A DNA stretch of 64,000 bases from Phycisphaerales bacterium (GCA_046350455.1 JAXMAM010000001.1:57130-121129); one strand, 5' to 3'; counted from the stretch's first letter, positions 33,084-63,593 are shown. Notes: generated by a model from the letters alone, not told the origin. Made by a program: numbers and translations.

Positions 33084-33248
33084 GCACCCAGGCAGGCGGC
33101 ACTGGCCGGCGTTGGCGCAGCTGTTTGCGCAACGACGTTGGGTTTTGGCGGATTCTGGCGCACCACGCTGTGCGGCTGGCGTAGGTGCGCCGTGAAGCAG
33201 TCGAAGGACAACCAAGTGCGGGCGGCTGCATCTGGCCCGTGGCGGCGC

Positions 33249-38976: not shown

Positions 38977-39025
38977 AAGGACGAAGCTGAGCAGACGTTC
39001 GCTGCACCCAATCCCCGAATTTCCC

Positions 39026-39528
39026 GAAATTGGTGCCTGGCACGGGTGTCCCTACTTTCGGGGGGGCGACCGATGGTGGCGCTGCTGGGGGCGTGGGAGG
39101 GGCTGCGAAGCGGCTGCCGAAGCAGCGCACGCCGCCGCCGATCCGCCGGCACGCGCCGCCGCCGATCGTCCATCTCTCGCAGCGGCCGCAGCGCGGGGCC
39201 GGGGGGCGCGGCGTAGCGGCGTTGAGCGGAGCGAGGCAGGCTGTGTGGGTTCCTGGGCTCGCGGGCCGTTCCACCTGCCAAGCGCACGCGAAGCCGAGGC
39301 GAAGGCGGAACCTGGTGGAGCCGAGCCGTCCGCGGCCGCGCCCCCCGGCCCGCGCGGAGGCCGCGGGCGAGGCACGCACGGGACGGCCCGCACGGAGGCC
39401 GCGACACGGGGCGCTCGCGGTTCAGCGCGCGGTCCGGCGCGGGATCCCCGCGCCCCGCAAAAACCCGGGACAGGAGTGCCAGGCACCAGTTTCAGAAAGT
39501 AGGGACACCCGTGCCAGGCACCAATTTC
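39026..39528 (+). mobile_element. MITE-like non-autonomous element, copy 1 (about 503 bp, about 35-75-bp terminal inverted repeats beginning GAAATTGGTGCCTGGCACGGGTGTCCCTACTTTC)
   Basis: The left end gaaattggtgcctggcacgggtgtccctactttcgg and the right end ccgaaagtagggacacccgtgccaggcaccaatttc are reverse complements. The internal GC-rich core is the reverse complement of the core of the copy at 56133-56749. It contains no credible CDS. Confidence 0.6.
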
Positions 39529-41023
39529 AATCGTCCGCGTGGCCGAAGAGCGCGCGCACCACGCTGGCCATCCGGTCGGGCACAGCCAGCGCCACTTCGT
39601 CGCCTACCTCGAACACCGTGTCGCCACGCACGCGCTCTGCACGGCCGTTGCGCACCAGGAGCGCCACGGTCACCTCGCCGGGTAGCTTGGCCTCGGCCAG
39701 CGTCTTGCCCGCCACGGGCGAATCCGGATGCACGGGCATCATGATGAGCGCAGCGTCCATGGGCTGCGCGGTCACAATGTCAATGGTGGCCGAAGCCTGC
39801 GGCGCGGGCGGCAGCCGCAGCCGCAGCATGCCCATCACCCAGCGCACCGTGGCGCCAGGAATCACATTGCCTACGATCACGCAGAAGAACACCACCTTGA
39901 AGATGATCTGCAGTTCGTCGTTGCGCGTGTCGCCCGCGCTGACCATGAGCGGGATGGTCATCAGGATGACCGGCACTGCGCCGCGCAGCCCCAGCCACGC
40001 CACGCCTGCGATCTCGCTGGCTGGGAAGCCAAACGGCCACAGCACCAGGGTGACCACCAGCGGCCGTGTGATCAGCGCCAGCGCCAGCGCCAGCACGGTG
40101 CCGCCCACCGCCACAGGGAACTCCACCATCACAGCCGGATTCACCACGAACCCCAGCGCCACAAACATGACGATCTGCGCCAGGTACGCCATGGTGGCGT
40201 GGAACCGGATGAGCGTGGCGCTGAATGGCAGCTGCCGGCTGTTGCGCAGGTACAGCGCTGCCATGAACACCGCCAGCAGCCCGCTGGCGTGCAGGCTCTC
40301 TGCCACGCCATATGCCAGCAGCGCCACCGCCAGCGTGCGCGCGGGGTAGGCCTCGGGCGCGTCGTCGCGGAAGTGCTGGATGGCGTTCATGGCCACCCAG
40401 CCGATGAACACGCCCAGAAACGCGCCGCCTATCAGCTTCCACGCGATCCCCGGCAGCACCATCCAGCTGAAGCCGTCCCCCATGCTCATGGCTGTGAACG
40501 TGGCCACCAGGATGAACGCCATGGGGTCGTTCAGGCCGCTCTCCAGCTCCACGGTCTCCTTCACGCGGCCAGCGATGCGCTCGCCGCCCAGGATCTGCAG
40601 CACGCTGGCTGCGTCGGTGGAGCCCAGCACGGCGCCCAGGATGAGCGCTGCTGCAAAGGTGATGCCCGGAATGAGCAGCCACGCCACCACGCCGGTCACC
40701 AGGCTGATGCCCAGCACGCCCACCGTGGCCAGCGCGACCGCAGGCCAGAACACGCCGCGCACGCGCCGCAGGTCCGTGCACAGCCCGCCGTAGAACAGGA
40801 TGAGCGACAGCGCCACGTTGCCCACCACGTAGAGCACGTCGTAGTCGCCCACAGCGCTGCGCAGCTCTGGCTGGCGCCCCAGCGCCATGCCCAGCGCGAT
40901 GAACACCAGCGCCGTGGGAATGCCCAGCCGGCTGCTGGCCCGAGCGCTGAACGCAGCCGCGCCCAGGAGCAGCCCTGTGAGAGCCAGCAGCACTGGGAGC
41001 GTGTAGAAGAGCGCGCTTGACAT
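39527..41023 (-). CDS. CPA1-family Na+(K+)/H+ antiporter (NhaP-type) with C-terminal TrkA-C/RCK_C domain
   Basis: Start [15 protein letters not shown]. 10-12 TM helices. C-terminus ...[44 protein letters not shown]. The stop TGA overlaps the last 2 nt of the MITE TIR. Confidence 0.7.
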
Positions 41024-41051
41024 GGTGGCCAGTCCGGGGACGATACCCCGC

Positions 41052-42368
41052 ATGCAGCAGGCCTTCCCATCTGTCCAGCAGGTGCGCTACGAGGGCCCTG
41101 CCACCACCAACCCGCTTGCGTTCCGCCACTATGACCCGAGCGCGCTGGTGGAAGGCAAGCCCATGCGCGACCACCTGCGCTTTGCTGCGTGCTACTGGCA
41201 CACCATGCGCAACGGGCTGGCGGATCCCTTCGGCGCGCCCACGGCGCTCATGCCATGGGACGATGGCAGCAGCTCGGTGGACAACGCGCTGCGCCGGGTG
41301 GACGTGTTTATCGAGTTCCTCACCAAGTGCCAGATTGACTGGTACTGCTTCCACGACCGCGACCTTGCCCCGGAAGGCGCCACGCTCCGCGAGAGCAACA
41401 CCACCCTGGACCGCGTGGTGCAGCACCTGGCTGCGCAGACCAAGGCCGCTGGAAAGCGCCTGCTGTGGGGAACTGCCTGCCTGTTTGCCCACCCGCGCTA
41501 CCTGGCTGGCGCTGGCACCAGCCCCAGCGTGCAGGTCTTTGCGCACGCTGCAGCGCAGGTGAAGAAGGCCATGGAAGTGACGCACCAGCTGGGCGGACAG
41601 GGGTACGTCTTCTGGGGCGGGCGCGAGGGCTACACCAGCCTGCTCACCAAGGACATGCCGCGAGACCTGCGCCACCTGGCCAGCCTGCTGCACATGGCCG
41701 CTGCGTGGAAGAAGGAGCTGGGCTTCAGCGGCCAGCTGTACATCGAGCCCAAGCCGCGCGAGCCCAGCGTGCATCAGTACGACTACGACGCCGCCACCGT
41801 GCTCTCCTTCCTGCGCGAGCACGGCCTGCTGGGCACGTACACGCTGAACATCGAGACCAACCACGCCACGCTGGCCGGCCATGAGATGGAGCATGAGCTG
41901 CGCGTGGCTGCAGCAGCCAACGCGCTGGGCAGCATTGACGCCAACATGGGCACGCCCCACTGCGACTGGGACACAGACCAGTTCCCCACCGACCTCTACC
42001 TGACCACGCGCGTCATGCTGGTGGTGCTGGGCATGGGCGGGTTCACCACAGGCGGCCTGAACTTTGACGCCAAGCGCCGCCGCGAAAGCTGGGAGCCAGA
42101 GGACCTCTTCCGCGCGCACATCGCTGGCATGGACGCCTTTGCCTGCGGGCTGAAGGCAGCGGCTGCCATCCGCGCAGATGGCCGCCTGGCCCAGGCGCTG
42201 CGCGACCGGTACGGCAGCTGGGACACGCCGCTGGGCCAGCGCATCGAGGCAGGCAGCGCCACCATGGCAGAGCTGGAAGCCATGGTGCTGGACGCCGCAG
42301 TGCCGCCACCTCCCAGCGGGCAGCAGGAGCGGCTGGAAGCGCTCTTCAACCAGTTCATCCAGGGGTGA
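41052..42368 (+). CDS. xylA: xylose isomerase
   Basis: [28 protein letters not shown]..., FHDRD, WGGREG and further conserved blocks. About 438 aa. Divergent from the antiporter, 28 nt apart. Confidence 0.85.
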
Positions 42369-42427
42369 GCGGGCGCAGGGGCGGGTCCCGCGCAGGCGGC
42401 CCACGCAGCGCCGCGGGGCCCGCAGGC

Positions 42428-43429
42428 CTACGGCGGCGGGATGTACGTGTACGTGCCGCCCGTGTCCTCTGCGATGCGCTTCAGCACTGGCTCTGCAGCC
42501 TGCGAGTAGAACGCGATGGTGTGGATGACCACCTTGTGGTCCCCGTTGTACTGGTCCAGCACGTTGTCCACGGGCGCGCCGTTGAACTCGCCGTCGGTCA
42601 TCAGGTAGATGGTGTCGGGCCGCGGCTCGCGCAGCGCGATGCGCAGGGCTTCGGTGGGGTCGGTGCCGCCGCCGCGCTCCTGGGCGCGCAGCCACTCGAT
42701 GGCAGCCTTCTTGTTGGCATCCGTGGCGGCCACCAGCGAGCCGGGCGGCATGGCCAGGGCTGTGTCGTCAAAGAACACAATCAGGAACGCGCCGTTGTTG
42801 GGCAGTTTCTCAATGGACCGGCGCAGCTCCAGCTTGGTGTGCACCAGCTTCTGGCCAGCCATGCTGCCAGAGAAGTCAATCACATAGACCACGCGGCGCG
42901 AATCCGTCCGCACGCCCATGAACTCTGTGCCGCCGCGGGTGCCAGAGGCGCCCTCCACGCCGTGGCTGTCGCCAGAGCCCACCACTGGCGGCGCAGCAGG
43001 TGGCGCCACGGGCTGCGGTTCCTCGTCTGGCAGCGTGAAGCCAAACTTGGGCGGCGTCTGCTCAGCAGGCGGTGCGTTGCTGGGCGGACCGCTGGCCACA
43101 GCGGGGGAGCCAGCCCCAGGGCCCACGCCACCCGTTGCGTCCATCACATCGTTGCCGCCGCTCCCTGCACCGGTGCCCTTTTCACCAGACCCGGGACCAT
43201 TGCCGTGCGTGCCAGTGCCAGTGCCTGTGCCGCCGCCAGCGCCACCAGTGCCATGCCCATAGCCCAGGCCACCTCCGCGCAGCTGGCCATCTGGCCGGGC
43301 TGCATCTGATCCCGCCAGCCAGGCAGCCACGCACAGCACCATGGCTGCCACAAAGGTGGCTGCGATGCCCACCACCGCGGTCAGCCGCTCGTGTGGTTCG
43401 CAGGTGGTGCCGGTATTGACGTGCTGCAT
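42428..43429 (-). CDS. membrane-anchored von Willebrand factor type A (vWA) domain protein
   Basis: N-terminal TM, Gly-rich linker, then VVYVIDFSGSMAGQKL (the MIDAS motif DxSxS) ...TDGEFN. Divergent from the operon, about 65 nt apart. Confidence 0.6.
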   Translation of the reverse strand: MQHVNTGTTCEPHERLTAVVGIAATFVAAMVLCVAAWLAGSDAARPDGQLRGGGLGYGHGTGGAGGGTGTGTGTHGNGPGSGEKGTGAGSGGNDVMDATGGVGPGAGSPAVASGPPSNAPPAEQTPPKFGFTLPDEEPQPVAPPAAPPVVGSGDSHGVEGASGTRGGTEFMGVRTDSRRVVYVIDFSGSMAGQKLVHTKLELRRSIEKLPNNGAFLIVFFDDTALAMPPGSLVAATDANKKAAIEWLRAQERGGGTDPTEALRIALREPRPDTIYLMTDGEFNGAPVDNVLDQYNGDHKVVIHTIAFYSQAAEPVLKRIAEDTGGTYTYIPPP

Positions 43430-43494
43430 GGCGTGCAGGCGGAAAGTTCGCAGGTTCGCTGTGAATCTGGTCAGGGACGCCCGGAAAGCCGCCT

Positions 43495-44981
43495 TTGACT
43501 AGCGTATACGGAAGGGAACACGCCCTCTCCCACAACATTCACGAGGGAATCTTGACCCGCACGCTCAAGTCTTCCTGCACCTGCCCCCATTGCTGGCACC
43601 GTTTCCGGCCCGACGAGGTCATGTGGATCGCCGCCCACCCCGAACTGGTGGGCGACAACCTGCTGTCCGCAGAAGACCCGGTGCGCTTCCTGCCCAGCCG
43701 GTTTACGCCCGATGGGCACGCGCTGGACCCAGGTGGCCAGCCCACCCGCCGCCTGGCCTGCCCGCATTGCCATCTGGAGGTGCCGCAGCTGGTGCTGGAG
43801 CGCCCCATGGTGTTCATGTCCATCGCGGGCAGCCCCTCCAGCGGCAAGAGCTACTTCCTGGCCAGCGCCATGTGGCAGATGCGCCAGGATCTGGCCCGCT
43901 TCTTCAGCGTGGCCTTCACCGACACCGACCCCGCCATGAACCGGATGATCGCCCACAACGAGGCGCGCCTGTTCCTGAACGAGGACGCCAACGCGCTGGT
44001 GGCCATCGAGAAGACCGAGATGGAAGGCGCGCAGTACAACTCGGTGCAGTTCGACCCGGGCGCTGCCACGCTCCTGGCGCATCCGTTCATCTTCACCGTG
44101 CGGCCTGGGCGCGACCATGTGAACGGACACGGCGCTGGGCGGCTGACCACGCTGCTGACCCTGTACGACAACGCAGGCGAGCACTTCATGCCGGGCGCAG
44201 ACACCACGCGCGCGCCAGGCACCAAGCACCTGGCCAAGTCGCAGGTGCTGATGTTTGTGTTCGACCCCACGCAGGACGTGCGCTTCCGCCAGCGGCTGCA
44301 GGCTGTCTCCAGCGACCCGCAGCTGGCGGCAGGGCGCCGCACCGTGCGCCAGGACCAGCTGCTGGTGGAGATGGCGCGCCGCATCCGCATGCATGCAGGC
44401 CTGTCGCCCACCGCGCGCATCAAGCGTCCGCTCTTCCTCCTCCTCAGCAAGAGCGACATCTGGAAGGACCTGCTGCGCGATTCCAGCAGCCAGCCGCTGG
44501 ACGTGATCACCCCGCCCTACACGCGCGAGCGCGTGGGCCTGGGCAAGATGGACATCCGCCGCGTGGATGCAGCCAGCGACGCAGTGCGCGCGCTCCTCAC
44601 GCAGCTGGCGCCAGAGATCGTCACCGCCGCAGAGGACGCCTTTGAACGCGTCATCTACGTGCCTGTGAGCGCCACCGGCACTTCGCCCGTGCTCGATCCG
44701 GCCAGCGGCCTCCTGAAGGTGGCGGTGTCCAAGATCGCGCCAGCGTGGTGCGCATGCCGTTCATCTACTCGCTGGCGCGCTGGTCCAAGCACATGATGGC
44801 CACCAACAAGAGCGAGCCGCCGGGGTCGTTCTATGAGGAGGATGAAGGCACGCCAGAGACGCCGCCACCCGGCCACCCAGATGATGCTGGCGATGCTGGC
44901 GAGGCAGATGCGTCCGACGCAGCAGCGCGCGACGCTGGCCCGCCGCTCACACCCGTGGAGGGCCACGTGGATGGCGCATGA
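43495..44981 (+). CDS. zinc-ribbon + P-loop GTPase (G1 GSPSSGKS, G3 DNAG, G4 SKSD, G5 SAT); probable frameshift near 44735-44750 (upstream frame stops at 44796, downstream frame continues to 44981)
   Basis: CTCPHCWHRF...CPHCH, then MVFMSIAGSPSSGKSYF, TLYDNAGE, LLLSKSDIW, YVPVSATG. A TTG start at 43495 or 43553 (the latter preceded by GAGGGA). A second frame with high GC3 runs 44716-44981 and overlaps the next gene's start. Confidence 0.5.
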
Positions 44982-45471
44982 GCTGGTGTACACCTCGGCT
45001 GCGCGCGGTCTGCGCGATGGCACCAGCGGCTTCTGCACGGTGGCCATGACGCGTGGGCTTCCGCTCACCTTGGTGCCGCGGCTGGAGACGCTGGGCGGGT
45101 ATCGCCCTGGACCAGCTGGCGATGGGCCAGTCGCGCTCTCCCGCGGCCGGGAGAAAGCGGCAGCGTGCTGGGTCTGCTCTTCTACGCGCTGGGTGGGACC
45201 CGCAGCGCCGGACCACACGCAGCGCAGCAACAAGATCGCCACTACCTGGTGCTGGACGAAGAACCGCATCGATGGCCCAGCATGGCTGCTGGTGCTGCTG
45301 CGCTGCTGCGGCCTGGCGCGGACCGCCGGCGTGGTGCTGGCCGAGCAGCCTGCGGCGCTCCCCACTGCGCCTGCCACTGGGCCAGCGCCCCGTCAGGCGG
45401 GGGCGCTACGCGCGTGCAGGCGACGCTGGCTGCAGGGGAAGCTGGCTTCCAGCGCTCGGTGCTGGCGATGA
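44968..45471 (+). CDS. small protein of unknown function (operon gene B)
   Basis: ATG within ATGGCGCATGA overlapping the upstream stop. GC3 favours this frame over most of its length. An ambiguous 45100-45190 stretch leaves the frame uncertain. Confidence 0.3.
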   Translation, partial: WMAHELVYTSAARGLRDGTSGFCTVAMTRGLPLTLVPRLETLGGYRPGPAGDGPVALSRGREKAAACWVCSSTRWVGPAAPDHTQRSNKIATTWCWTKNRIDGPAWLLVLLRCCGLARTAGVVLAEQPAALPTAPATGPAPRQAGALRACRRRWLQGKLASSARCWR

Positions 45472-46346
45472 GCAAGCCAGCGCATGTGATCTACCCCGCT
45501 GGCATGGATCCCATGCCGCTCATCCTGGAGGCGCAGCAGCTGCTTCCTGCCTGGGCGCGCTGGCGGGCCACCTTCAGCACCTACTTCCTGCAGCCCGTGG
45601 CGGGTGCGCCGTGCCTGTGGCGCTTCTGCCTGGATGGCACGCCTGCCGCAGATGCCGCGCGCGCCTCCAAGGGCGTGGTGATTGACCTGACCAGGCAGCT
45701 GGGTGAAGCACCCGATGGCCGCTATGTGCGCGCGGCGCGCTCGGGCTCCCTGGAGGGCGAGGCTCCCGCAAGCGCGCAGGCTGGAGCCGCCGCGCCCCGG
45801 GGCTCGCGGAGCGGCGGTGCTGCGTTTGACGAGGAAGAGCCACAGGGCGGCTTCGCAGAAGGGCCGAACGCTGGCAGGTTGATGGACGAGCACGGCGAGC
45901 CGATCGGATTGGCGCCGCTGGAGTCAGCCGCCTCCAGCCGCTCCAGGCGCTTGAAGTCCAGCACCGATCAGGGCAGCGGGCCCACCTTCCGGCTGAGCCC
46001 CGCTGTCATTGGCGCGATTGCTGGCGCTGGCACGCTGGCGCTGGTGGTGGTGGTGGCCGTGCTGTTCTCGCGCGGAAGCGGGCAGACGCCGCAGCAGCCG
46101 GATGAGGCGGAACTGTCGGGCCAGGCGCAGCCATCAGGCCAGGCAGCGCGTCAGGGCAAGGCGCCGCCAAAGGGCCTGCCGTGGCCTCCCAAGGAGCCGG
46201 GGCAACGGCAGCAGGTGGTGGTGCAGGCCCCGAGCCAGCGCCTGTGGAGCCGCAACCTGTTGGCACGCAACCTGTCCAAACACAGTCTGTCCAGCCACAG
46301 CCAGTCGAGCCACAGCCGGACAAGCCATCATCAAGCGAGCCATTGA
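45468..46346 (+). CDS. membrane protein with one TM helix and Pro/Gln-rich linker (operon gene C; probably continuous with 46181-47500 through a frame change)
   Basis: The ATGA overlap with the gene B stop is weaker evidence because that boundary is itself low-confidence. TM FRLSPAVIGAIAGAGTLALVVVVAVLF. GC3 is high until about 46200. The C-terminal SHSQSSHSRTSHHQASH tail looks out of frame. Confidence 0.4.
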   Translation: MSKPAHVIYPAGMDPMPLILEAQQLLPAWARWRATFSTYFLQPVAGAPCLWRFCLDGTPAADAARASKGVVIDLTRQLGEAPDGRYVRAARSGSLEGEAPASAQAGAAAPRGSRSGGAAFDEEEPQGGFAEGPNAGRLMDEHGEPIGLAPLESAASSRSRRLKSSTDQGSGPTFRLSPAVIGAIAGAGTLALVVVVAVLFSRGSGQTPQQPDEAELSGQAQPSGQAARQGKAPPKGLPWPPKEPGQRQQVVVQAPSQRLWSRNLLARNLSKHSLSSHSQSSHSRTSHHQASH

Positions 46347-47500
46347 CGGGCAACGCGCAGCCAGCGGCACCCACGCAGCCAGCGCAGCAGCCCACGCAGC
46401 CCACAGAGCCCACGCAGCCAGCGCAGCAGCCCACGCAGCCCACCGCGCCTGCGCAGCCAGCGCTGGTGCCAGCTCCAGCGCCGGACCGCCCTTCGCGGCA
46501 GGTGGTCATGCGCCTGGTGGAGAACGCGGACACGCTGTTTGCCAGCGTGCAGCTCAACCAGCTCTGGGGCATCACCGGTGCGCGGTTCGCGCCTCCGCCG
46601 CTCCTGCAGCAGCAGGGCGTGGTGGCAGAGGACAACCAGCTGCGCATGCCAGGCGTGCATCCTTCGGCGGTGGTGGAGCTGAAGGATGGCGGCATCCGCA
46701 TCAGCTTCCCTGTGCGCGGCAACGGGCTTGAGGCGCTGGCGTCGGTGATCCGCATGCGCACCAGCGCCAAGCCAACCGACTACGCCCGCGCAGTGCTGCG
46801 CCGTGTGCCGCTGCTCCTGACCGACGCCAACGGCGTGGTGGTGGCCACTGCGCGGGTGGAGGCAGAGCCGCGCGTGGAGCTCCGCCGCAACGCGCAGCAG
46901 GCGCAGCTGCCGCTGACCGTGCGCGAACTGGCCATCCGCGCCGCCGTGGTCCACGACACCCCGCAGGGGCGCGAGGAGCTGGACTCGCGCGAGATCATGC
47001 CCGGACAGTCGCTGCCGGTGAAGGGCCGCCACGGCGACCTGCTGGTGACCTTTGAGAACGCCTACTCCCTGGCCGTGACGCCAGAGTCTGCGTCCGCTGC
47101 CGCGGCAGAGCAGGCCCGGCTTGCAGACGAGATGCAGAAGATCAGCGCCCGCCTTGGCGCGGTGGCGGTCCTGCAGCGCAAGCTGAAGGGCGCGAGCAGC
47201 GTGACCGACACGGACGTGGCGCGCGCCATCACCGAAGTGCAGAACGCGCTGAACGACGACGAGAAGGAGCACACCAAGGATGCCAAGGGCAAGGCGCAGC
47301 CGCTGACGGACACAGAGACGCTCCAGCGCGTGCTGCCGCGCTTTGAGGCGCGCTGCAAGCTGGAGGCGGAGACCACGCGCACAGCGCTCCTGGAGGCGCA
47401 GAAGCGCTCCCGCACCACCCCGGACGACAAGCTGCGCGTGGAGTTCTACGGCACGGATGGCATGCTCCTGGGCGTGGTCCTCCCGGAAGGAAAGTCCTGA
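46181..47500 (+). CDS. Pro/Gln-rich linker (PVEPQPV.. / QPTQPTEPTQPAQQ repeats) plus about 330-aa C-terminal domain (operon gene D or 3' part of gene C)
   Basis: High GC3 from about 46210 to 47500. Stop overlaps the next start (TGATG at 47500). Confidence 0.45.
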   Translation: MASQGAGATAAGGGAGPEPAPVEPQPVGTQPVQTQSVQPQPVEPQPDKPSSSEPLTGNAQPAAPTQPAQQPTQPTEPTQPAQQPTQPTAPAQPALVPAPAPDRPSRQVVMRLVENADTLFASVQLNQLWGITGARFAPPPLLQQQGVVAEDNQLRMPGVHPSAVVELKDGGIRISFPVRGNGLEALASVIRMRTSAKPTDYARAVLRRVPLLLTDANGVVVATARVEAEPRVELRRNAQQAQLPLTVRELAIRAAVVHDTPQGREELDSREIMPGQSLPVKGRHGDLLVTFENAYSLAVTPESASAAAAEQARLADEMQKISARLGAVAVLQRKLKGASSVTDTDVARAITEVQNALNDDEKEHTKDAKGKAQPLTDTETLQRVLPRFEARCKLEAETTRTALLEAQKRSRTTPDDKLRVEFYGTDGMLLGVVLPEGKS

Positions 47501-48606: not shown

Positions 48607-51512
48607 ACAGCGTCACCCGTGAAATGTTCGACGCCGTGCGCGATGCACTGGCGGGCCGCGAGATGGACGAAGCCCAGCGCCGCGACCTGGCGCAGCGCGT
48701 GAGCGAGGCCGGCATGGCGTTCCGCCGCCGCGTGGATCGCGCCGTGCGCTATACGCGCGATGGTCTGCGCTTGGAGGCCGCTGCGGAGGCGGAGGCAGAT
48801 CCCTCCATCTTTGAGGTGGCGCAGGCGCTGGACAGCCCCGACCTGCACAAGTGGCGCGCAGCGTGCCAGCGTGCGCACCTGCCAGCGCCGGACGCCCCGG
48901 ATCCAGCCGCGCTCGGCGAGATCGAGGAGGCCATCGCCCAGCTGCGTCCGCTGCGCAAGTACATGGCCCGCATGCGCACGCTGGTGCTGAGCGACGCGCC
49001 GCCGTGGGACCGCCTTCTGGTGCTGCGCAGCCTGCGTGCGCACGACCCGCACAACCACGCATGGAAGGAGGACCAGGCTGCGCTGGAGCCAAAGGCCGCA
49101 GAGTGGCTGGCGGAGCGCTGCGAGAAGGCAGTGCAGGCAGGGCACCTGAACACCGCTGCGCGCATGCTGGAGCATCTGGAGGATGGCGGCTGGCGCTCGC
49201 TGGACGTCAGCCGCCCTGTTGGCCAGCTGCGCACTGCGCTGCACGCCGCCGTGGTGGCGGAGTGCGTGCGCAAGGCGGCCCCCGTGGTGGAGCGGCTGGA
49301 GGCGGAGTGGGCCGCGGAGGACGCGCCTGCCGTGCGCGCCACGCTGGCTGAATGGCATGAGCTGAACGCCCGCGCGGTGGAGCACGACGGCCAGATGGAG
49401 GACGCGCTCTTGGCCCGCGTGGCCCGCGTGGAGGAGTGGCTGGACGAACGCACGCAGCTGGCCGAGGCGCAGCGCGACCACCGTGACCGCGCGGCCGCGC
49501 TGCAGCGCATCCTGGACGCGCAGGTGGCGCCGCTGCAGGAGATCCGCGCCGCCCTGAAGGCCAGCGAGGACACCAGCGAGGGCTGCCCAGACGACCTGCG
49601 CCGCCGCACGCTGGACCGCATCGACCAGCTGGAGCGCAAGCAGCGCGCACGGCGCGCCGCCGTGGCGGGTGCTGGTCTGCTGGTGCTGGCTGCAGCGGTG
49701 ACCGGCGTGTGGCTGGGGGTGAAGTACGTCACCCACAACGCAAGCGTGTCCAACATCGCGGCGTCCATCCAGAATGCAGTGGACGCTGGGCGGCTTGAGG
49801 ATGCGGAGCGCATCCTGAAGGAGGCGCAGGCGGACCCGGCTGTGGCCGGCGACGAGCGCATCGGCATCGCTGGCGCAGCGCTGGCCCGGGCGCAGCTGGC
49901 GCGCACGCAGGCGGTGACCAACTTTGCGGCCCTCATGGCGGAGGCCGGAGATCCGGAAAGCGCTGCCGCGCACCCAGAAGCTGTGGAGGAGGCCAAGGAG
50001 CTGGCGCGCACGCCAGAGCAGCAGGCAGCGGTGGAGGAGTGGGTGCGCAAGCGCCGCCGCGCAGAAGCGCAGCGTGCCGCCGAGCGCACGCGCGACCTTT
50101 CGCAGCGCATTGCAGAGCTGGCCAAGGAGGTCAGCGCGGTGGATCCAAGCACCGCCGAGGCGCCCAGCACGCTCACTGCGCTGGAGACCAAGCTGCAGGC
50201 CCTGGAGCGGAGCGCGGCAGACCAGCCGGAACTTCGCCAGCAGCTTGACAACGTGCGTGCGCTGGTAGTGGCGCAGCGGTCCTCTGCGCAGAGCGCTGCG
50301 GCTGGTTCAGAGCGGCAGAGCGCACTTCAGGCGCTGGCCGCGCAGTCCACTGAACCGCTGGCGCTGGCTGGAGCCATCAAGGCCTTTGCTGACCGCTATC
50401 CCGGCACGCCAGAGGCCGTGGCGCTGGCGCAGGCCGCTGTGGCTGCGCCGCAGTGGAACGCCGTGGCGCAGTGGAACGAAGTCGTGGGCACGCGGCCGTG
50501 GGGGCGCGCGGCGCAGCTCTCCAACGAAGAGCGCGACACCATGCGCGACGCGCTCAAGGCGTACGTGGACGCGTATCCGGCGTCGCCCTTTGCGGCTCTG
50601 GCCAGGCAGATGATGGCCATGCTCTCCAACCCGGAGAGCTGGCGCGGCTGGGCCAGCGGCAAGCTGGACACGCTGCCTGCCTTCACCTACTACGTGGTGG
50701 ATCTCATTGATGGCTCGCGGCTGTACACCACCCAGGACCCAGCGCGCATCAACCTGCAGTCGCGGGCCAATCTGCCGCAGTACAAGGTGATTCCAGTGCT
50801 GCAGAAGGATGATCCGGCGGGCGGCACGGTGCTGATGGACGTGGACACCGCGCGCATCAAGAAGGCTGGGCCCTCCCCGCAGATGCTGCTGGCTGGCCAG
50901 CTGCGCCAGGTGGTGGCGGATCCAGAGCCTCAGGGCGACTGGGCCAACGGCATGACCGCTGCGCTGGCCGTGCTGCAGCGCGTGCGCGACGCACAGGACG
51001 TGGACGGCGCCTTTGCCGCACAGCTGGCGCGCGGCGTGCTGGAGTCGCTGGACGCCGAGGCGCCTGCCGAACTCCGCCCCGCGCTGCAGAGCGCGGCCAA
51101 GCGCATCGCGCGCGAGCGCCCAGAGGACGTGGCGTGGGTGGCGGGCTCGCAGCCCGCACGGGCACGCAGCGCCGAGCTGCGCGCGCTGCTCAAGCAGGTG
51201 CTCACGGTGGAGGCGTGGCGCAAGACGCTTGCGGAGGCGCCCGCAGCCGTGGCTGGCGCCATGATGCGGCCAGTGCCGGTGGGCATGCTGATGGGGCTGG
51301 AGAGCCGTGTGCTCACCACGCCGCCGGGCACCAGCGCGCCAGCGGGCGCCTCGCTGCTGGCGCTGAAGGTGGGCGTGGGCACTGTGCCATCGGAGCTGGT
51401 GCGCATCGGCCAGGTGGATGGCGCTGGCGCGGTCACGCTTGATCAGGCGGCAAGCGCCTTCCCCATGGGCACCATGGTCTTTGCCCTCCCTTCCAAGGGG
51501 GCAGGCCAGTGA
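48603..51512 (+). CDS. 996-aa bitopic alpha-helical/coiled-coil protein (about 390-aa cytoplasmic, one TM, about 580-aa periplasmic; TolA-like architecture) (operon gene F)
   Basis: ATGA overlap with gene E stop at 48603-48606. TM RRAAVAGAGLLVLAAAVTGVWLGV around residue 390. Ala/Glu/Arg/Gln-rich heptad-like segments. Strong GC3. Confidence 0.55.
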   Translation: MNSVTREMFDAVRDALAGREMDEAQRRDLAQRVSEAGMAFRRRVDRAVRYTRDGLRLEAAAEAEADPSIFEVAQALDSPDLHKWRAACQRAHLPAPDAPDPAALGEIEEAIAQLRPLRKYMARMRTLVLSDAPPWDRLLVLRSLRAHDPHNHAWKEDQAALEPKAAEWLAERCEKAVQAGHLNTAARMLEHLEDGGWRSLDVSRPVGQLRTALHAAVVAECVRKAAPVVERLEAEWAAEDAPAVRATLAEWHELNARAVEHDGQMEDALLARVARVEEWLDERTQLAEAQRDHRDRAAALQRILDAQVAPLQEIRAALKASEDTSEGCPDDLRRRTLDRIDQLERKQRARRAAVAGAGLLVLAAAVTGVWLGVKYVTHNASVSNIAASIQNAVDAGRLEDAERILKEAQADPAVAGDERIGIAGAALARAQLARTQAVTNFAALMAEAGDPESAAAHPEAVEEAKELARTPEQQAAVEEWVRKRRRAEAQRAAERTRDLSQRIAELAKEVSAVDPSTAEAPSTLTALETKLQALERSAADQPELRQQLDNVRALVVAQRSSAQSAAAGSERQSALQALAAQSTEPLALAGAIKAFADRYPGTPEAVALAQAAVAAPQWNAVAQWNEVVGTRPWGRAAQLSNEERDTMRDALKAYVDAYPASPFAALARQMMAMLSNPESWRGWASGKLDTLPAFTYYVVDLIDGSRLYTTQDPARINLQSRANLPQYKVIPVLQKDDPAGGTVLMDVDTARIKKAGPSPQMLLAGQLRQVVADPEPQGDWANGMTAALAVLQRVRDAQDVDGAFAAQLARGVLESLDAEAPAELRPALQSAAKRIARERPEDVAWVAGSQPARARSAELRALLKQVLTVEAWRKTLAEAPAAVAGAMMRPVPVGMLMGLESRVLTTPPGTSAPAGASLLALKVGVGTVPSELVRIGQVDGAGAVTLDQAASAFPMGTMVFALPSKGAGQ

Positions 51513-52543
51513 GCGAGGGCTGGCATGTCCGGCAGGCAGGCCGCCAGAGCGGGCCGTTTGACCTGGAGCGGCTGCGCACCATGGCGCAGCGTGGCGCGCT
51601 TACGCGGTTCCACCAGCTGAGTCGCGATGGCGAGGAGTGGATCTCTGCTGCCAAGGTGCGGGCCGTCTTCAACGAGGATGGGTCGGTGGCAACCGGCCCC
51701 ACAGACAGCGGGGCATCCTTCAGCAGCACCAGCGCCTTTGAGGCCTTTGCCAACATGCGCATGCCAGAGCTGCCGGCGCTGCCCACAGCGCACTTCCGCG
51801 GCGGGGCGTTTGGCGCCACCGTGCTGTGGGCGCAGATCGCAGCGCTGGCGCTGGGCACGCTGGCCATGGTGGCTCCCACCAGCCGCGATGCTGATGGCGC
51901 GCTGCAGTGGTGGTTCCAGGAGGGGGCGCTGAGCATCTCGGTGCATGCCATGACGCTGCTGGCGTTCCTCACGTGGTGGGTGGTGGCGTTCCTGCCGCCC
52001 AACGCGTCGGTGGGCGCGTCGCTGGCTGCGGTGTCTGCGGTGCTGGCTGCAGGCAGCATGCTGCCGGCTGTGTCCTGGGCGCCGTGGGCGCTGCCAGCTG
52101 CCGCGGTCCTGCCGCTGGCGGCCATGCTGGTTGCCTTCGGCACAGAGGGCTCCAAGGCCGTGGGCGCGGTGGCCATCACGCTGTGCATCGAGGCCGGCCT
52201 GGCCCTGGTGGTGGCGGGCCTCCTGCTGGCATTCAACTTCAGCGGCTGGGGCCTGGCGGCCGTGCTGGTGCAGCTGGCTGGAACCGTGGCGCTGATCATC
52301 GGCGCTGTCCGCACCAAGAGCGGGTTGTCGCACGCGTTTGCGCTCACCGTGGGCGGCGCTGCGGCCATGGCCGTCACCATGTTCCTGGCGAGCGCTGCAG
52401 CCCTGGCTGGTGAACAGCCTGCGCATGGAGCGGCTGGAGCAACGTCCGCTGCGCTGTGCGTGTGCCTCTCCGTGCTAGCGTGGAGCGCGTCGCACCAGGC
52501 GCTGGGCGGTCCGCTGATCATCAAGTCAACCACAGAGTCATGA
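51509..52543 (+). CDS. DUF4339 (GYF-like) N-terminal domain fused to about 6 TM helices (operon gene G)
   Basis: GTGA overlap with gene F stop. WHVRQAGRQSGPFDLERLRTMAQRGALTRFHQLSRDGEEWISAAKV matches the DUF4339 pattern (W...G...GP.....L......G.....T.VW......W). Hydrophobic helices follow. Confidence 0.55.
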   Translation: MSEGWHVRQAGRQSGPFDLERLRTMAQRGALTRFHQLSRDGEEWISAAKVRAVFNEDGSVATGPTDSGASFSSTSAFEAFANMRMPELPALPTAHFRGGAFGATVLWAQIAALALGTLAMVAPTSRDADGALQWWFQEGALSISVHAMTLLAFLTWWVVAFLPPNASVGASLAAVSAVLAAGSMLPAVSWAPWALPAAAVLPLAAMLVAFGTEGSKAVGAVAITLCIEAGLALVVAGLLLAFNFSGWGLAAVLVQLAGTVALIIGAVRTKSGLSHAFALTVGGAAAMAVTMFLASAAALAGEQPAHGAAGATSAALCVCLSVLAWSASHQALGGPLIIKSTTES

Positions 52544-53439
52544 GCGCACAGACACCCACCACCGCAGATCCTTCGTCGCACAAGCAGCGCGCAGAGGCGC
52601 CCAGCAGCCAGCACCGCCTGGACGCCCGCAAGGGCGACCTGGAGTGCATGGTGGGCCTGCCATCTGGGCGGTACACCTCAGCCAGCGCCACGCTGTGGCT
52701 GGCTGGGGCGGCGGCGCTCACGGCGGCGTGCGGCGGGCTGCTGCTCCTGCTGGCGCCGCAGGGCTACGTGCTGCACATGCTCAACCGGTGCTGGACCAAC
52801 TGGGCGGTGGTGCTGCTCACGTGGTGGAGCCTGTGCATCCTGATCAACAAGTGGATCAAGACCAGCATCCAGATGAAGGCAGTGCGCATTGACACGCTGG
52901 TGCCGCGCCGCGGCGACTTTGTGCTGAGCCCCGGCACTGCAGGCGACGTGCTGCGCCACATGCGCGCCATCGCGGAGCGGCCCAAGGACTTCCTGCTGTT
53001 CCGGCGCATTGACATGGCGCTTTCCAACCTGGGCAACATCGGTGAGGTGCGCGACGTGGGCGCTGTGCTGGAGGGCCAGGCAGACTCGGACGCCAGCCAG
53101 GTGGACAGCAGCTACACCGTGCTGCGCGCGGTCATCTGGACCATCCCCATCCTGGGGTTCATCGGCACGGTGATCGGTCTGTCGGACGCCATCGGCAGCT
53201 TTACGGAAGTGCTCACGCAGCCAGGTGCGGACGTGGCGGCCATCAAGACCAAGCTGGGACCGGTGGTCACAGGCCTGGCCACGGCGTTTGAGACCACGCT
53301 GGTGGCGCTGCAGGCAGCGGTCATCGTGCAGCTGATCTCCACGTGGGTGTTCAAGCGCGAGGAGGACATGCTGGACGCCATGAGCGAATACACCACCGAG
53401 CACATCCTGAGCCGGCTGAAGCTGACCGACTGGAAGTGA
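52540..53439 (+). CDS. MotA/TolQ/ExbB-family proton channel subunit (operon gene H)
   Basis: ATGA overlap with gene G stop. Four TM helices. C-terminal signature ILGFIGTVIGL...LGPVVTGLATAFETTLVALQAAVIVQL. Confidence 0.65.
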   Translation: MSAQTPTTADPSSHKQRAEAPSSQHRLDARKGDLECMVGLPSGRYTSASATLWLAGAAALTAACGGLLLLLAPQGYVLHMLNRCWTNWAVVLLTWWSLCILINKWIKTSIQMKAVRIDTLVPRRGDFVLSPGTAGDVLRHMRAIAERPKDFLLFRRIDMALSNLGNIGEVRDVGAVLEGQADSDASQVDSSYTVLRAVIWTIPILGFIGTVIGLSDAIGSFTEVLTQPGADVAAIKTKLGPVVTGLATAFETTLVALQAAVIVQLISTWVFKREEDMLDAMSEYTTEHILSRLKLTDWK

Positions 53440-53457
53440 CGCCGGAGCGCCTGCACC

Positions 53458-54288
53458 ATGGGACGCCGCAAGAAGAAGCAGCAGGAGTCGCTCACGCTGT
53501 TCTCCTTTCAGGACATCATGGCATGCCTGACGGGCGTGCTCATCCTGATCTCGCTGCTGCTTGCACTGGACGGCCTGAGCGACCGCATTGACGACGCTGG
53601 CGCGCCTGGATCCGCCGCAGAGGCCGATGCCGCGCAGCGCGTTGAGCAGCTGGCAGCGGAGATCAAGACGCTGGAGGAGCAGGTGGACGTGCGCATGCGC
53701 GGCCTGCCTGTGACCGAGGACGAGGTGAAGGTGCTGGAGGCGCGCGCAGCCAGCATGCAGCGCGAACTGGATGAGGCCCAGCAGCGCGACCGCACGCTGG
53801 CGGCAGAGGTGGCGCGCCTGGAAGAGGAGGAGAAGGCGCTGATGGTGCGGCGCCAGGCTGCGGAGCGCACCCTGGTGGAGCAGGAGCTCCAGAAGCGGCG
53901 GCAGCGCGTGCAGTACCGCCCCGGCGGGCAGCAGGAGCGGACGCCGCTGTTCGTGGAGGTCTCGGCCAGTGGACTGCGCGTGGGCAAGCTGGACGCAGAG
54001 CGCACGCCAGTGATGCTGGCTGATCTGCCAGGCGCTGCGCCGCTGCCACCCAGGCCTGAAGAGGGGCTGGCCAAGGCGCTGAATCCGCTCGGGCCGGATG
54101 CGTACTACGTGCTGTTCGTGGTGCACCCGGATGGCATCAAGCGGTTCGAGGCGCTGCGCGCAGCGGTCTTCCGCAATGGCTACGAAGTGGGCTGGCAGCT
54201 GTGGGACGCAGCTGCGGGCGCGTTCCTGCAGCCAGCACCTGTGGTCACGCCCGCTGCGGCACCAGCAGGCGCGGGGGGTGGCTCATGA
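53458..54288 (+). CDS. TolR/ExbD/MotB-like subunit 1 with conserved TM Asp, long coiled coil and ExbD-like periplasmic domain (operon gene I)
   Basis: MGRRKKKQQESLTLFSFQDIMACLTGVLILISLLL (compare MotB YADFMTLLMAFFLLL). Coiled coil. ...YYVLFVVHPDGIKRFEALRAAVFRNGYEVGWQL. Confidence 0.55.
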   Translation: MGRRKKKQQESLTLFSFQDIMACLTGVLILISLLLALDGLSDRIDDAGAPGSAAEADAAQRVEQLAAEIKTLEEQVDVRMRGLPVTEDEVKVLEARAASMQRELDEAQQRDRTLAAEVARLEEEEKALMVRRQAAERTLVEQELQKRRQRVQYRPGGQQERTPLFVEVSASGLRVGKLDAERTPVMLADLPGAAPLPPRPEEGLAKALNPLGPDAYYVLFVVHPDGIKRFEALRAAVFRNGYEVGWQLWDAAAGAFLQPAPVVTPAAAPAGAGGGS

Positions 54289-55091
54289 ACCGCGGGCCGT
54301 TCAGGCGCCGGCGGCGGCGGCGAGCTGGGTCGCTGGCGGGCGACCCGTTCATCCTCTTCCTGGATGCCATCACCGATGCGCTGGGCGTGGTGATGTTCCT
54401 GCTGTTGATGGTGGTGCTGGCAGCACGCGCGTCCAACGTGGTGTCCAGGCTGGGCGGTGGCAAGCAGGCAGCGGCGGCAGCATTGCAGGAGGAGCGCGAT
54501 GCGCTGGCTGTGGAGCTGGCAGCGCTGCCGCCTGCGGGGGACCCGGAGGTGGCGGATCGCTGGCGCGCTGCGCAGGCCACGCTGGCCAGCCTGCGGCCGC
54601 AGCTGGACCGCGCTGCGCCTGCCATCCGCATGCGCGTGAATGAGTCGCAGTCCAAGCGAGTGGCGCTGACGTCGCTGGACACCGAGGTGCAGACGCTGGA
54701 GGCGCGCGTGAAGGCGCAGGCTGCCACGGCCAGCGTGACGCCTTCGCTGGTGCGCGTCAGCCGGTTCAAGAGCGACGCGCGCAAGCCCGTGCTCCTGGGG
54801 CTCAACCAGGGTGCGCTGTCTGCGCTCAAGGTGTCGCACGACACCAAGAGCATTGCGCCACCTGCCAGCGGCACGGCGGTGCCCACAGCCGCGGCAGCGC
54901 GCGCTGCGCTGGAGACGCTGCTGTCTGGCCAGCCGCGCGACACGTATCGAGTGGAGCTGGTGGTGTGGGCCAATTCCTTCGCGCAGGCCAAGCTGGTGGA
55001 GGAGGCGCTGGCCGAGATGGGGTACGACGTGAACCCGCTGCCAGTGGTGGACGGAGGCGTGCTGGAGCCCGGTGCTGGCGGCGTGCAGTAG
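54285..55091 (+). CDS. TolR/ExbD-like subunit 2 with conserved TM Asp (operon gene J)
   Basis: ATGA overlap with gene I stop. DPFILFLDAITDALGVVMFLLLMVV (compare ExbD/TolR TPLIDVMLVLLIIF). C-terminus YRVELVVWANSFAQAKLVEEALAEMGYDVNPL. Confidence 0.55.
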   Translation: MNRGPFRRRRRRRAGSLAGDPFILFLDAITDALGVVMFLLLMVVLAARASNVVSRLGGGKQAAAAALQEERDALAVELAALPPAGDPEVADRWRAAQATLASLRPQLDRAAPAIRMRVNESQSKRVALTSLDTEVQTLEARVKAQAATASVTPSLVRVSRFKSDARKPVLLGLNQGALSALKVSHDTKSIAPPASGTAVPTAAAARAALETLLSGQPRDTYRVELVVWANSFAQAKLVEEALAEMGYDVNPLPVVDGGVLEPGAGGVQ

Positions 55092-55139
55092 GAGGGGCGG
55101 GGTGCGGCGGGAGCGCGGCGCGGCGTACCATGGTGGGAC

Positions 55140-56132
55140 ATGCGCCGCGTTGCAGCCAGAGTGTTGGTCCTTGCTGCGGCGGCGTGTCTGCTGAGCGCGA
55201 GCCTGGCGGGGCTGGCTGGGTGCGGCAGGCCCATCACCGTGCAGGCATTGGCAGCGGGGTCGGATGCGCCGGTGGATGATGTGCGCATCTATCGCCACAT
55301 GTTCACGTGGTTCACGCTGTTCCCAGGCAAGAAGAGCGTGGAGACTGGGCCCGATGGCACAGCGGTGGTCACAGTGGGGCCGTCGAACACCAATCTCACC
55401 ATGCTTCGCCAGGGGTACGAGCCAGTGCTTTTGGGCGTGTTCGAGCAGGGCGCGCCCAGCATCCAGCCAGATGACGGTGGATACGACTATGTGCTGCTGT
55501 ACTCCACCATCAAGGACAAGCAGGTAGTGCCTGTGGAGTTCCGGCCTGTGCGGCGCGTGCCGCTGCAGCTGCATGTGGTGGATGCGGACAGCGGGCAGCC
55601 GCTGGCAGGTGCCACAGTGTTTGGGACCACGTATCTGTATCTGCCGCAGCCAGGCGTGGAGGCCGACTGGGGCTATCCGCCCGTGCAGGAAGTGACCACC
55701 AGCGCGCAGGGCCAGGCCGTGGTGGACCAGGTGAGCGGATTCCGCAATCGCGTGACAGTGCGCAAGCCGGGCTACTGCGATGCGGAGCTGGACATTGATG
55801 GCCGCAAGCTGGGCAGCGAGGCCGCGCGCGAGGTGGCGCTGCGGCCCTTCCGTGTGAAGCACGTGGATTTTCAGGTGTTTGACGCGTCCACGCGCATGCC
55901 TGTGGCCGGCGCAGAGGTGGTGCTGGGCGAGCAGCGCGACGGTCTCCCCATGAGCCCAGATGGCTGGAAGGCGGTCACTGGACCGACGGGCCGCACGGGC
56001 GTGCAGGCAGTGCCCAACATGGAGCCGCCGCTGATGACCGTGCGTGCCAAGGGCTACCCGGAATGGCGCGGCGCCCCGCTGTGGCGCGCGCTGCAGGACG
56101 GCGGCACCAAGCGCATCGAAATCCGCAAGTAG
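55140..56132 (+). CDS. lipoprotein with two or three carboxypeptidase-regulatory-like (transthyretin-fold) domains, in the Pal-like position (operon gene K)
   Basis: Lipobox LAGLAGC. TGPDGTAVVTV / DADSGQPLAGATVFG / VFDASTRMPVAGAEVVLG...TGPTGRTGV. The stop TAG is immediately followed by the MITE TIR. Confidence 0.55.
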   Translation: MRRVAARVLVLAAAACLLSASLAGLAGCGRPITVQALAAGSDAPVDDVRIYRHMFTWFTLFPGKKSVETGPDGTAVVTVGPSNTNLTMLRQGYEPVLLGVFEQGAPSIQPDDGGYDYVLLYSTIKDKQVVPVEFRPVRRVPLQLHVVDADSGQPLAGATVFGTTYLYLPQPGVEADWGYPPVQEVTTSAQGQAVVDQVSGFRNRVTVRKPGYCDAELDIDGRKLGSEAAREVALRPFRVKHVDFQVFDASTRMPVAGAEVVLGEQRDGLPMSPDGWKAVTGPTGRTGVQAVPNMEPPLMTVRAKGYPEWRGAPLWRALQDGGTKRIEIRK

Positions 56133-56749
56133 GAAATTGGTGCCTGGCACGGGTGTCCCTACTTTCGGAACCTCGTGCCAGGCACTCCTGTCCCGGGTTT
56201 CTGAGGCGCGCCGTAAGACCGTGCGGTACCGCGCGCTGAACCGCGCGCTGAACCGCGCGACGGACCGCAGGCACCGCGTGCCGCGGCCTCCGCGCGGTCC
56301 GGGGGGCGCGGCCGCGGACGGCTCGGCTCCACCAGGTTCCGCCTTCGCCTCGGCTTCGCGTGCGCTCGGCAGGTGGAACGGCCCGCGAACCGGGGAACCC
56401 ACACATCCTGCCTCGCTCCGCTCAACGCCGCTACGCCGCGCCCCCCGGTCCCGCGCTGCGGCCGCTGCGAGAGCGAGGTGATCAGCCGCTGCGAGAGCGA
56501 GGTGATCAGCCGCTGGGCGCGGAAGCCGGTCGAGAGTGGTGCTTGGCAGCACGTTCCCAGGCGACACGTGCCAGGTCACCATGCTCACTGGCACCTGCGT
56601 CCCAGGCACCTGTGTCCCAGGCACCCTTGACCCTGGCATCACTCTCCCTGGCACCACCCTCTGCGGCACGTATCTCCGAAAGGAGGGACACCCGTGCCAG
56701 GCACGAGTTTCGTCAGAAACCCGGGACACCAGTGCCTGGCACCAATTTC
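56133..56749 (+). mobile_element. MITE-like element, copy 2 (about 617 bp, inverted relative to copy 1, with internal tandem duplications)
   Basis: The same TIRs as copy 1. The internal core is the reverse complement of the copy 1 core. It contains the tandem duplications cgcgctgaaccgcg x2 and gctgcgagagcgaggtgatcagcc x2. The 3' end of asd lies inside the right end. Confidence 0.6.
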
Positions 56750-63381: not shown

Positions 63382-63417
63382 GGAAAATGGTGCCTGGCAC
63401 TCCTGTCCCTACTTTCT
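63382..63417 (+). repeat. solo MITE TIR (degenerate), 13 nt upstream of the zwf start
   Basis: ggaaaatggtgcctggcactcctgtccctactttc versus the TIR gaaattggtgcctggcacgggtgtccctactttc. Confidence 0.45.
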
Positions 63418-63429
63418 GGGGCGACGGGG

Positions 63430-63590: not shown

Positions 63591-63593
63591 ACC

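Follow-up and report, generated by a model that had tools for sequence, protein, structure and literature searches.

Inverted repeat elements on either side of a 16.6-kb gene block in a Phycisphaerales chromosome are probably independent members of a lineage-specific family of mosaic palindromic repeats

Two inverted copies of a short element bracket a 16.6-kb segment of DNA from a Phycisphaerales bacterium (GCA_046350455.1, JAXMAM010000001.1:57130-121129; this whole stretch of 64,000 nucleotides is referred to as the window, and positions are counted from its first nucleotide). The arrangement raises the question of whether the pair forms a composite unit able to mobilise or invert the genes in between, as proposed in a preliminary description of the locus, or whether the two copies arrived separately. 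The results given below point to the second answer. Thus, the copies at 39026-39528 (copy 1) and 56133-56749 (copy 2) probably belong, each independently, to a lineage-specific family of mosaic palindromic repeats that is non-coding, has multiple copies and resembles in style bacterial interspersed mosaic elements (BIMEs) and miniature inverted-repeat transposable elements (MITEs), in an uncultured Phycisphaerales species. The building blocks of the family are a 34-nt unit and a GC-rich palindromic core of about 200 bp, and the units are found singly, in doublets, in monomers (a core flanked by an inverted pair) and in head-to-head dimers. The 16.6-kb segment is, as judged from sequence comparison, ancestral chromosome and would be neither a composite transposon nor inverted.

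The 34-mer GAAATTGGTGCCTGGCACGGGTGTCCCTACTTTC was present with no mismatches at 39026 (+), 39495 (-) and 56133 (+) and with three mismatches at 56678 (-), the chance expectation being 0, in agreement with the preliminary description of two inverted copies bounded by terminal inverted repeats. The ends of the elements were made from one or two 34-nt units each, with no single long terminal repeat: copy 1 (503 bp) had a single left-hand unit and a right-hand pair, and copy 2 (617 bp) had a pair on either side. A profile of the unit detected exactly eight units within the 64 kb, at three loci only (next match, E = 0.08), and the palindromic centre GTGCCWGGCAC occurred eight times as opposed to 0.31 expected. 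Nucleotides 1-25 of the unit make up an imperfect dyad, GA(A/C)Annn-GTGCC-W-GGCAC-nnnT(G/T)TC, with an outer arm (GAAA) and an inner arm (GACA, which reads as TGTCCC). The terminal arms returned by a repeat finder were 34 nt at 100% identity for copy 1 and 37-47 nt at 84-85% for copy 2, and inverted arms shared by the two copies were 241 nt at 89% (39126-39366 and 56281-56521) and 116 nt at 86%. On alignment, the central cores were 96.4% identical over 193 nt in reverse complement, as the preliminary description had stated without a figure, and the internal tandem duplications reported for copy 2 were also present (24 bp x2.3 at 100%, 12 bp x2.7 and 15 bp x3.3). The G+C content of the elements was 70-80% (copy 1, 75% overall and 80% in its inner part). 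A third, partial member of the family, which consists of one unit and a GC-rich tail at 63383-63595, had been overlooked previously. The features of the elements are as follows.

39026-39528 (no strand): copy 1, composed of unit a, GC-rich core, unit b and unit c; non-coding; between the start side of an extracytoplasmic function (ECF) sigma gene and the stop of a K+/H+ antiporter gene
39026-39059 (+): unit a, type 1 (GGG-TGTCCC-TAC), with its outer end 61 nt upstream of the sigma-factor ATG at 38964
39126-39366 (+): copy 1 core, internally palindromic, with an 11-bp closing stem GGGGGCGCGGC/GCCGCGCCCCC
about 39302-39335 in the copy 1 core and 56312-56345 in copy 2: conserved core motif GGCGGAACCTGGTGGAGCCGAGCCGTCCGCGG
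39460-39493 (-): unit b, type 2 (TCC-TGTCCC-GGG), on the inner side of the doublet at the right-hand end
39495-39528 (-): unit c, type 1 with the same sequence as units a and d; GA, the first two bases of the unit, finishes the antiporter stop T/GA
39529-56132 (no strand): intervening segment with antiporter, xylose isomerase, VWA, DO-GTPase2/GAP1, MotA/ExbB, GYF and CarboxypepD_reg genes (from Pfam and synteny)
56133-56749 (no strand): copy 2, composed of unit d, unit e, core, tandem duplications, half-unit array, unit f and unit g; between the convergent genes CarboxypepD_reg and asd, its core being the reverse complement of the copy 1 core
56133-56201 (+): units d (56133-56166) and e (56168-56201), unit d directly after the CarboxypepD_reg TAG stop (56130-56132)
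56281-56521 (-): copy 2 core, with the exact 24-bp x2.3 tandem duplication at 56461-56515
56590-56661 (+): half-unit array, degenerate 15-bp tandem repeats of the inner half-unit GGCACnnnTGTCCCa
56678-56749 (-): units f (56678-56711) and g (56716-56749), unit g being the last 12 codons of asd
56713-56715: asd TGA stop, in the spacer between units g and f
63383-63595 (no strand): third, partial member, solo unit h (63383-63416, +) plus a GC-rich tail of 180 bp that contains 19-bp repeats; flanked by the stop of a xerC/D-like gene and by zwf, whose GTG start (63369) is 13 nt from unit h

Sequences compared with the window came from a conspecific genome, GCA_044230435.1 (loci L005 and L032; Asd 99% identical over the stretch preceding a frameshift), from conspecific "strain B", represented by several ENA and Logan assemblies (L006-L011 and L017-L031; Asd 97% identical), and from the more distant relatives L012, L013 and L014 (Asd 77-80% identical). 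Further copies, which the preliminary description had recommended seeking, were found as units or cores at a minimum of nine distinct intergenic sites in the conspecific contigs, in the form of monomers, head-to-head dimers and solo units. Neighbours of these sites were DinB_2, Phenol_MetA_deg (both sides), the stop of a ferredoxin gene, the region upstream of DCD, DegT, a gene for a 507-aa protein and accC; the sequence seen had a site about every 10-15 kb, and many short-read contigs terminated inside elements. The third member of the window had an ortholog in L005. Degenerate half-unit arrays with a period of 15-16 bp adjoined intact units in L017 (about 7180-7240) and L026 (9636-9690) as they did in the window (56590-56661), so that such arrays are recurrent in the family, and their repeats began at the dyad centre where boundaries were clear (window and L026).

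Beyond the species, an element from another Phycisphaerales metagenome-assembled genome (L001) had the same termini around an unrelated core of lower G+C content; it lay between convergent genes, both TAA stops of which were within its termini, and no target-site duplication was noted. A solo unit was also present 25 nt upstream of a tRNA gene on a metagenome contig (L003). These were the only matches to an exact unit pattern in GTDB species-representative genomes (L001, together with a probable chance match in Saccharothrix) and JGI metagenomes (L003); the same scan of IMG/VR gave nothing, nor did blastn of copy 1 against PLSDB plasmids, the scanned collections being without the source genome and its closest relatives and the exact-match pattern being one that would miss diverged units. 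Near-empty scans of this kind fit a family restricted to a narrow lineage, and literature searches gave no description of this repeat family. A query composed only of unit-encoded peptides gave one match (P0121/L016). In L016, a called 254-aa "protein" (1014-2014) was the first ~120 residues of biotin carboxylase fused to a translation of an element core; there was no unit at the join, which is either the endpoint of a deletion or rearrangement within the core or a chimeric contig.

The history of the intervening segment was examined at its right-hand junction. In L013 and L014, trpC-apaG-asd converged on CarboxypepD_reg, which was followed by MotA/ExbB, GYF, a 980-aa gene and GAP1; this gene order and orientation was that of the window over at least 10 kb of operon, and the element was absent. 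L012 agreed with the window in its asd side and operon except for three additional, interspersed genes, one with a lectin domain located after asd and the other two after CarboxypepD_reg, and again had no unit. The convergent asd and CarboxypepD_reg genes overlapped by 29 bp in L013 and were 55 bp apart in L014. The CarboxypepD_reg stop (CTACTT... on the asd strand) was conserved, and copy 2 followed it without an intervening base. At the opposite end, Asd was conserved through ...IAEHL, after which the window protein continued with 12 codons (36 nt) from unit g, the Asd tails of the relatives being unrelated. The element-free synteny of the relatives, together with the unit-encoded Asd tail, indicates that copy 2 was probably inserted into an ancestral junction, and conservation of junction and operon in element-free relatives indicates that the segment would neither have arrived nor have been flipped as a unit. 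Further along, the GAP1-to-antiporter block was collinear in strain B (L025). The composite unit or inversion envisaged in the preliminary description was thus not borne out by the synteny comparison that it had called for, the segment being neither inverted nor variable between genomes and showing synteny in L012, L013, L014 and L025. The absence of the element from the asd junction of these relatives also disagreed with a conserved RNA or regulatory region present at orthologous positions, which had been named as the finding that would overturn the description.

Differences between conspecific sequences indicated how elements may come and go. At the asd junction, a monomer was present in the window and in L005, and in strain B an extra element was fused to it head-to-head. 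At the antiporter 3' end of strain B, the element was a monomer in L026/L031 and a head-to-head dimer in L025/L029, each state being represented by two independent assemblies. At one further site both a filled and an empty state were noted between identical flanks: in L032 the DinB_2 TAG stop was followed by unit-core-unit and then sigma, and in L017-L024 (8 strain-B contigs) the same stop was followed by GAAACCCGTGCCAGGCACCAATTTC and then sigma. One 25-bp dyad is retained at the empty site, and both of its arms are outer arms: GAAAnnnGTGCC-W-GGCACnnnTTTC (12+1+12 bp). The centres of dimers, by comparison, had a dyad with two inner arms, GGGACAnnnGTGCCTGGCACnnnTGTCCC. Altogether, the distinct dyad sites comprised 27 outer/inner hybrids, 3 inner/inner fusions at dimer centres and 1 outer/outer site at the empty site, and the half-unit tandem duplications also began at the dyad centre. 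These findings are taken to show that elements can be lost with one hybrid dyad left behind and that fused or duplicated forms were joined at the dyad centre. The recent insertion activity claimed previously is likewise supported, as a probable property of the family, by the empty asd junction of the relatives and the structural polymorphism within the species.

Target-site duplications, a search for which had also been recommended, were looked for at every end and in the filled/empty pair, and none was seen. Thus, no such duplication flanked copy 1 (TTTCCC/../AATCGT) or copy 2 (AAGTAG/../GGGAGG), none was evident in the L032/L017 pair, and no direct repeat flanked the two copies as a whole (outer flanks ...GAATTTCCC and GGGAGGTGC...). 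The flanks did have one regular property: wherever a gene was seen with its 3' end towards the outer end of a unit, its stop codon was at the unit. This stop was finished by the first base or bases of the unit (T/GA, T/AA or TA/G) or came directly before it, and in the case of asd it was inside the element; the positions concerned were 39527-39529, 56130-56132 and 56713-56715 in the window, 692-694 and 992-994 in L001, 8133-8135 in L017, 9567-9569, 10452-10454 and 12667-12669 in L025 and 4032-4034 in L032. The compared sequences are taken to show insertion of elements into existing gene junctions, usually exactly at the stop codon and apparently with no target-site duplication. The coincidence with stop codons reflects either target preference or selection. 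Elements were also situated 13-71 nt upstream of the starts of sigma, zwf, DCD and Phenol_MetA_deg and of a tRNA gene.

Gene order around copy 1 differed between conspecific genomes (compared over window 38964-39545, L032 3990-4500, L017 9871-10010, L025 9545-10480 and L026 9580-10050). In the window, the order was antiporter, unit c, unit b-core-unit a and sigma. The sigma gene was preceded by DinB_2 in both conspecific genomes (L032 and L017), and homology between the window and L032 started at unit b. The DNA beyond the antiporter element was sigma in the window, DegT in L026/L031 and the 507-aa gene in L025/L029, and only this far side of copy 1 differed between genomes. Since gene order among conspecifics differed exactly at elements, the elements mark rearrangement points. 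The breakpoint at copy 1 could be due to ordinary recombination between dispersed repeats or to recombination at dyads.

Considered together, the elements look most like mosaics of the BIME or repetitive extragenic palindromic (REP) type that are gained and lost at the dyad. Gain and loss would occur by breakage and joining, or by strand exchange, at the dyad, and would be carried out by an enzyme that acts in trans and is not encoded in the window. A DDE transposase is disfavoured by the absence of target duplications and by the hybrid empty site, both of which fit an HUH/RAYT-like enzyme or a site-specific recombinase; a mechanism of either of these two kinds, which leaves no duplication, would be the more likely. 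Replication slippage on the hairpin could add to the losses. REP and REPIN repeats of Proteobacteria are mobilised by RAYT (REP-associated tyrosine transposase), a Y1 HUH transposase of the IS200/IS605 type. As in BIMEs and REPs, the short dyad unit described here occurs solo, in inverted pairs, in clusters and mixed with other conserved motifs; the repeats of the window are extragenic and for the most part directly follow coding regions or separate convergent genes; target-site duplications are absent; and copy number and arrangement vary between strains. According to Di Nocera et al. 2013 (PMC3733652), REPs and the repeats called TIRs flank RAYT-like (TIRYT) genes and share the motif GGGGWSAS, and single, dimeric or grouped copies are found mostly after coding regions. 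All units of the present family contain GGGACAS, which resembles that motif, and type-1 units carry GTAG, a likeness to TIRYT-associated repeats that serves as a lead and not as a test.

Several observations weigh against this reading. A single unit had no significant hairpin (-3.4 kcal/mol, z -0.8 versus shuffles) and thus, unlike a REP, forms no stable stem-loop, despite the 11-nt palindromic centre of its 25-nt dyad. Type-2 units, again unlike REPs, are without GTAG, and the elements include a 200-bp GC-rich palindromic core. A mobilising enzyme was not found; specifically, no RAYT or TIRYT gene was present in the window, no HUH or Y-NP motif was detected in its six frames, and the sole recombinase nearby was a truncated and ordinary-looking gene of the xerC/D type. 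Loss of elements is explicable as RecA-independent slippage between the 11-bp palindromic centres, for which an enzyme is unnecessary, and it was documented by a single filled/empty pair in which either state may have come first. In the relatives with Asd 77-80% identical, the empty sites have diverged too far for the insertion point to be placed at base level, and the copy number is an extrapolation from about 130 kb of sequence. Synteny differences were in part noted on metagenome contigs, and the antiporter-copy 1-sigma join of the window, being without support from any other assembly, could be a misassembly.

The next best explanation, that the elements are classical MITEs, i.e., deletion derivatives of an insertion sequence moved by a DDE transposase that reads the 34-nt units as terminal inverted repeats, is unlikely. 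The perfect 34-bp terminal inverted repeats, the small size and non-coding nature of the elements and their multiple, intergenic copies agree with it, as do the one or two binding-site-like repeats per end, an arrangement that resembles the ends of Tn7, Mu or IS21-type elements, and the L001 element with the same termini and a different core. Further likenesses to bacterial MITEs (Correia/NEMIS of Neisseria, RUP, ERIC and Nezha) include the size range of 0.3-0.6 kb, the long hairpins and the altered ends of neighbouring genes. Target-site duplications were, however, absent from copy 1, copy 2, L001 and the L032/L017 filled/empty pair, and the hybrid dyad retained at the empty site is not left by either cut-and-paste or copy-paste DDE transposition. 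The terminal units are modular, in that they also occur alone and as inner/inner fusions, and no cognate insertion sequence or autonomous transposase with these termini was found in the window, in the exact-pattern scans of GTDB species-representative genomes, JGI metagenomes and IMG/VR, or by blastn against PLSDB plasmids, collections that do not include the source genome. With neither target-site duplications nor a partner transposase found, membership in the classical MITEs is not established. Thus, of the term "MITE-like" as used in the preliminary description, the part that refers to small, dispersed, non-coding elements with terminal inverted repeats stands, whereas the part that implies insertion with target-site duplication does not, nor does it accommodate units in solo and hybrid form.

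A still less likely explanation is that a tyrosine or serine recombinase uses the 25-bp dyad as its core site, with the cores and gene blocks as exchangeable modules in the manner of the dif modules of Acinetobacter plasmids. The dif modules have imperfect-dyad sites in alternating orientation and hybrid sites, and a shuffling of neighbouring DNA between close relatives is documented for them (PMC6449649, PMC13141974). The site types enumerated above, as expected of an att-like system (outer/inner x27, inner/inner x3 and outer/outer x1), the alternating orientation of sites around cores and gene blocks, and the location of conspecific synteny breakpoints at units are all similar to this. The modules of the present family would, on the other hand, be non-coding cores in a chromosomal setting, and the site is GC-rich with 12-bp arms and a single central base. 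It shows no resemblance to the dif consensus, in which two arms of 11 bp surround an AT-rich centre of 6 bp (28 bp altogether). No dedicated recombinase was found, and no link to Xer was evident beyond the xerC/D-type gene that adjoins the third locus. The same products would result from homologous recombination between the 200-bp cores (about 90% identity) and slippage at the 11-bp centres; there is no dyad at the asd junction of element-free relatives; and some breakpoints may be assembly artefacts. If this explanation were true, recombination at the dyad would be a chromosomal, Planctomycetota-type analogue of plasmid dif modules that reshuffles gene order between strains, and the outer/outer, inner/inner and outer/inner sites, as well as the three different neighbours beyond the antiporter element, would be products of the recombinase.

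A host function of the elements as structured RNA, terminator, insulator or promoter cassette, kept for that function and spread by gene conversion, is improbable. The statement that neither copy has coding capacity held, as open reading frames that cross the elements had no Pfam match at E <= 0.1, gene callers called nothing inside elements at homologous loci, and a six-frame translation of copy 1 used as protein query gave no match, low-complexity words being dominant; long open reading frames span the elements only because the G+C content is 70-80%. Copy 1 folded much better than shuffled sequences on both strands (z -7.6 and -8.3), which is a point in favour of a cis-acting role; an equal fold on both strands nevertheless indicates palindromy of the DNA rather than structure of an RNA. 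No Rfam family was matched at gathering scores, and permissive thresholds gave only E = 2 and 5.7, the level of chance. No part of the element is better conserved across copies than the core, yet no covariation was evident among 10 core copies (term +0.64, compensatory changes in only 3 of 55 pairs), copies that are too similar to be informative. The core motif GGCGGAACCTGGTGGAGCCGAGCCGTCCGCGG (32-38 nt) was retained at 92-97% identity upstream of zwf in L012 (83-120 and 254-291) and L014 (1-45; 84% over 45 nt at the start of the contig), relatives without units. In both it is located within GC-rich repeats, which in L012 means inside a 170-bp tandem repeat. Placement at gene ends and upstream of the starts and tRNA gene listed above is also in favour of a regulatory role. 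The elements are, however, missing at orthologous sites in relatives. The motif includes the pattern GGAAC-N15-CGTC, which has the look of an ECF-type promoter, and a small hairpin; this pattern was not enriched in the window (3 found versus 1.6 expected) and in both window copies it points antisense into the neighbouring gene.

Several candidate signals in the elements were set aside. An ECF-type promoter in the core is kept as a lead only, since enrichment was lacking. A sigma-54 promoter that would account for TGGCAC was ruled out by inspection, the -12 position being TCCC and not TTGC, and a tRNA-like reading of GCTCCACCA in the core was ruled out in the same manner, the T-arm being absent. 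A promoter and terminator consensus scan of copy 1 gave no sigma-70-like site and one terminator-like match, which is the unit itself.

The weakest explanation, that the two copies mobilise or invert the 16.6-kb segment as a composite unit, is highly improbable in that, although the two related elements do bracket a gene block as in a composite transposon, with cores inverted and 96% identical over 193 nt and copy 1 at a point where synteny between conspecific genomes breaks, the block and its right-hand junction are syntenic in element-free L013 and L014 (asd, CarboxypepD_reg and at least 10 kb of operon) and, apart from three interspersed genes, in L012, the GAP1-to-antiporter block is collinear in strain B, the variation is confined to DNA beyond the antiporter (sigma, DegT or the 507-aa gene) while the segment itself is constant, no direct repeat surrounds the pair (TTTCCC ... 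GGGAGG), and no transposase was found.

Other features of the window and its relatives were noted in passing. The operon at 43495-56132 encodes DO-GTPase2, GAP1-N2/GAP1-M, a 996-aa open reading frame (of the 980-aa class in relatives), GYF_2, a MotA/ExbB-like protein and CarboxypepD_reg, with a divergent VWA gene beside it at 42428-43429; its order is kept in all relatives examined and the operon is thus a feature of the core genome and no island. The minus strand at 63596-64000, where a gene is cut by the end of the window, encodes about 135 C-terminal residues of a tyrosine recombinase of the xerC/xerD type (...LLGH...TQVYTH...); this gene, which adjoins the third, partial element in L005 as well, has a housekeeping look, and no link between it and the repeats was shown. 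A CoA-transferase (CoA_transf_3) gene present in both conspecific genomes (L017 15526-17155 and L032 10073-11688) was missing from the window at 33081-33269, with no units at the indel. A coding motif, DLN(N/G)DG.VDG.DLG.LL..WG (60-80 nt, dockerin- or EF-hand-like), was repeated in several large genes on both strands (e.g., 300-446, 6969-7133, 11958-12039 and 29444-29590) and underlies several of the top repeat families of the window. In-frame tandem repeats were present at 20539-20634 (12 nt x about 8) and at 46356-46472 (39 nt x2.8), the latter within a P/Q/A-rich part of the GAP1-like gene region.

For the biology of this Phycisphaerales species, the results mean that elements of the family replace or supply the ends of genes, as in the case of the asd tail and the antiporter stop codon, and that they are rearrangement hot spots among strains. 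The 16.6-kb block, with its GTPase/GAP1 operon that resembles a conflict system, should not be annotated as a mobile island or composite transposon. Since the family disrupts short-read assemblies, alters gene ends and coincides with strain-level rearrangements, it may be useful in quality control of metagenome-assembled genomes and in strain typing. Finally, the lack of target duplication, the apparent dyad-centred gains, losses and fusions, and the abutment of units on stop codons would provide a handle in the search for the enzyme, whether this is RAYT/TIRYT-like or a recombinase.

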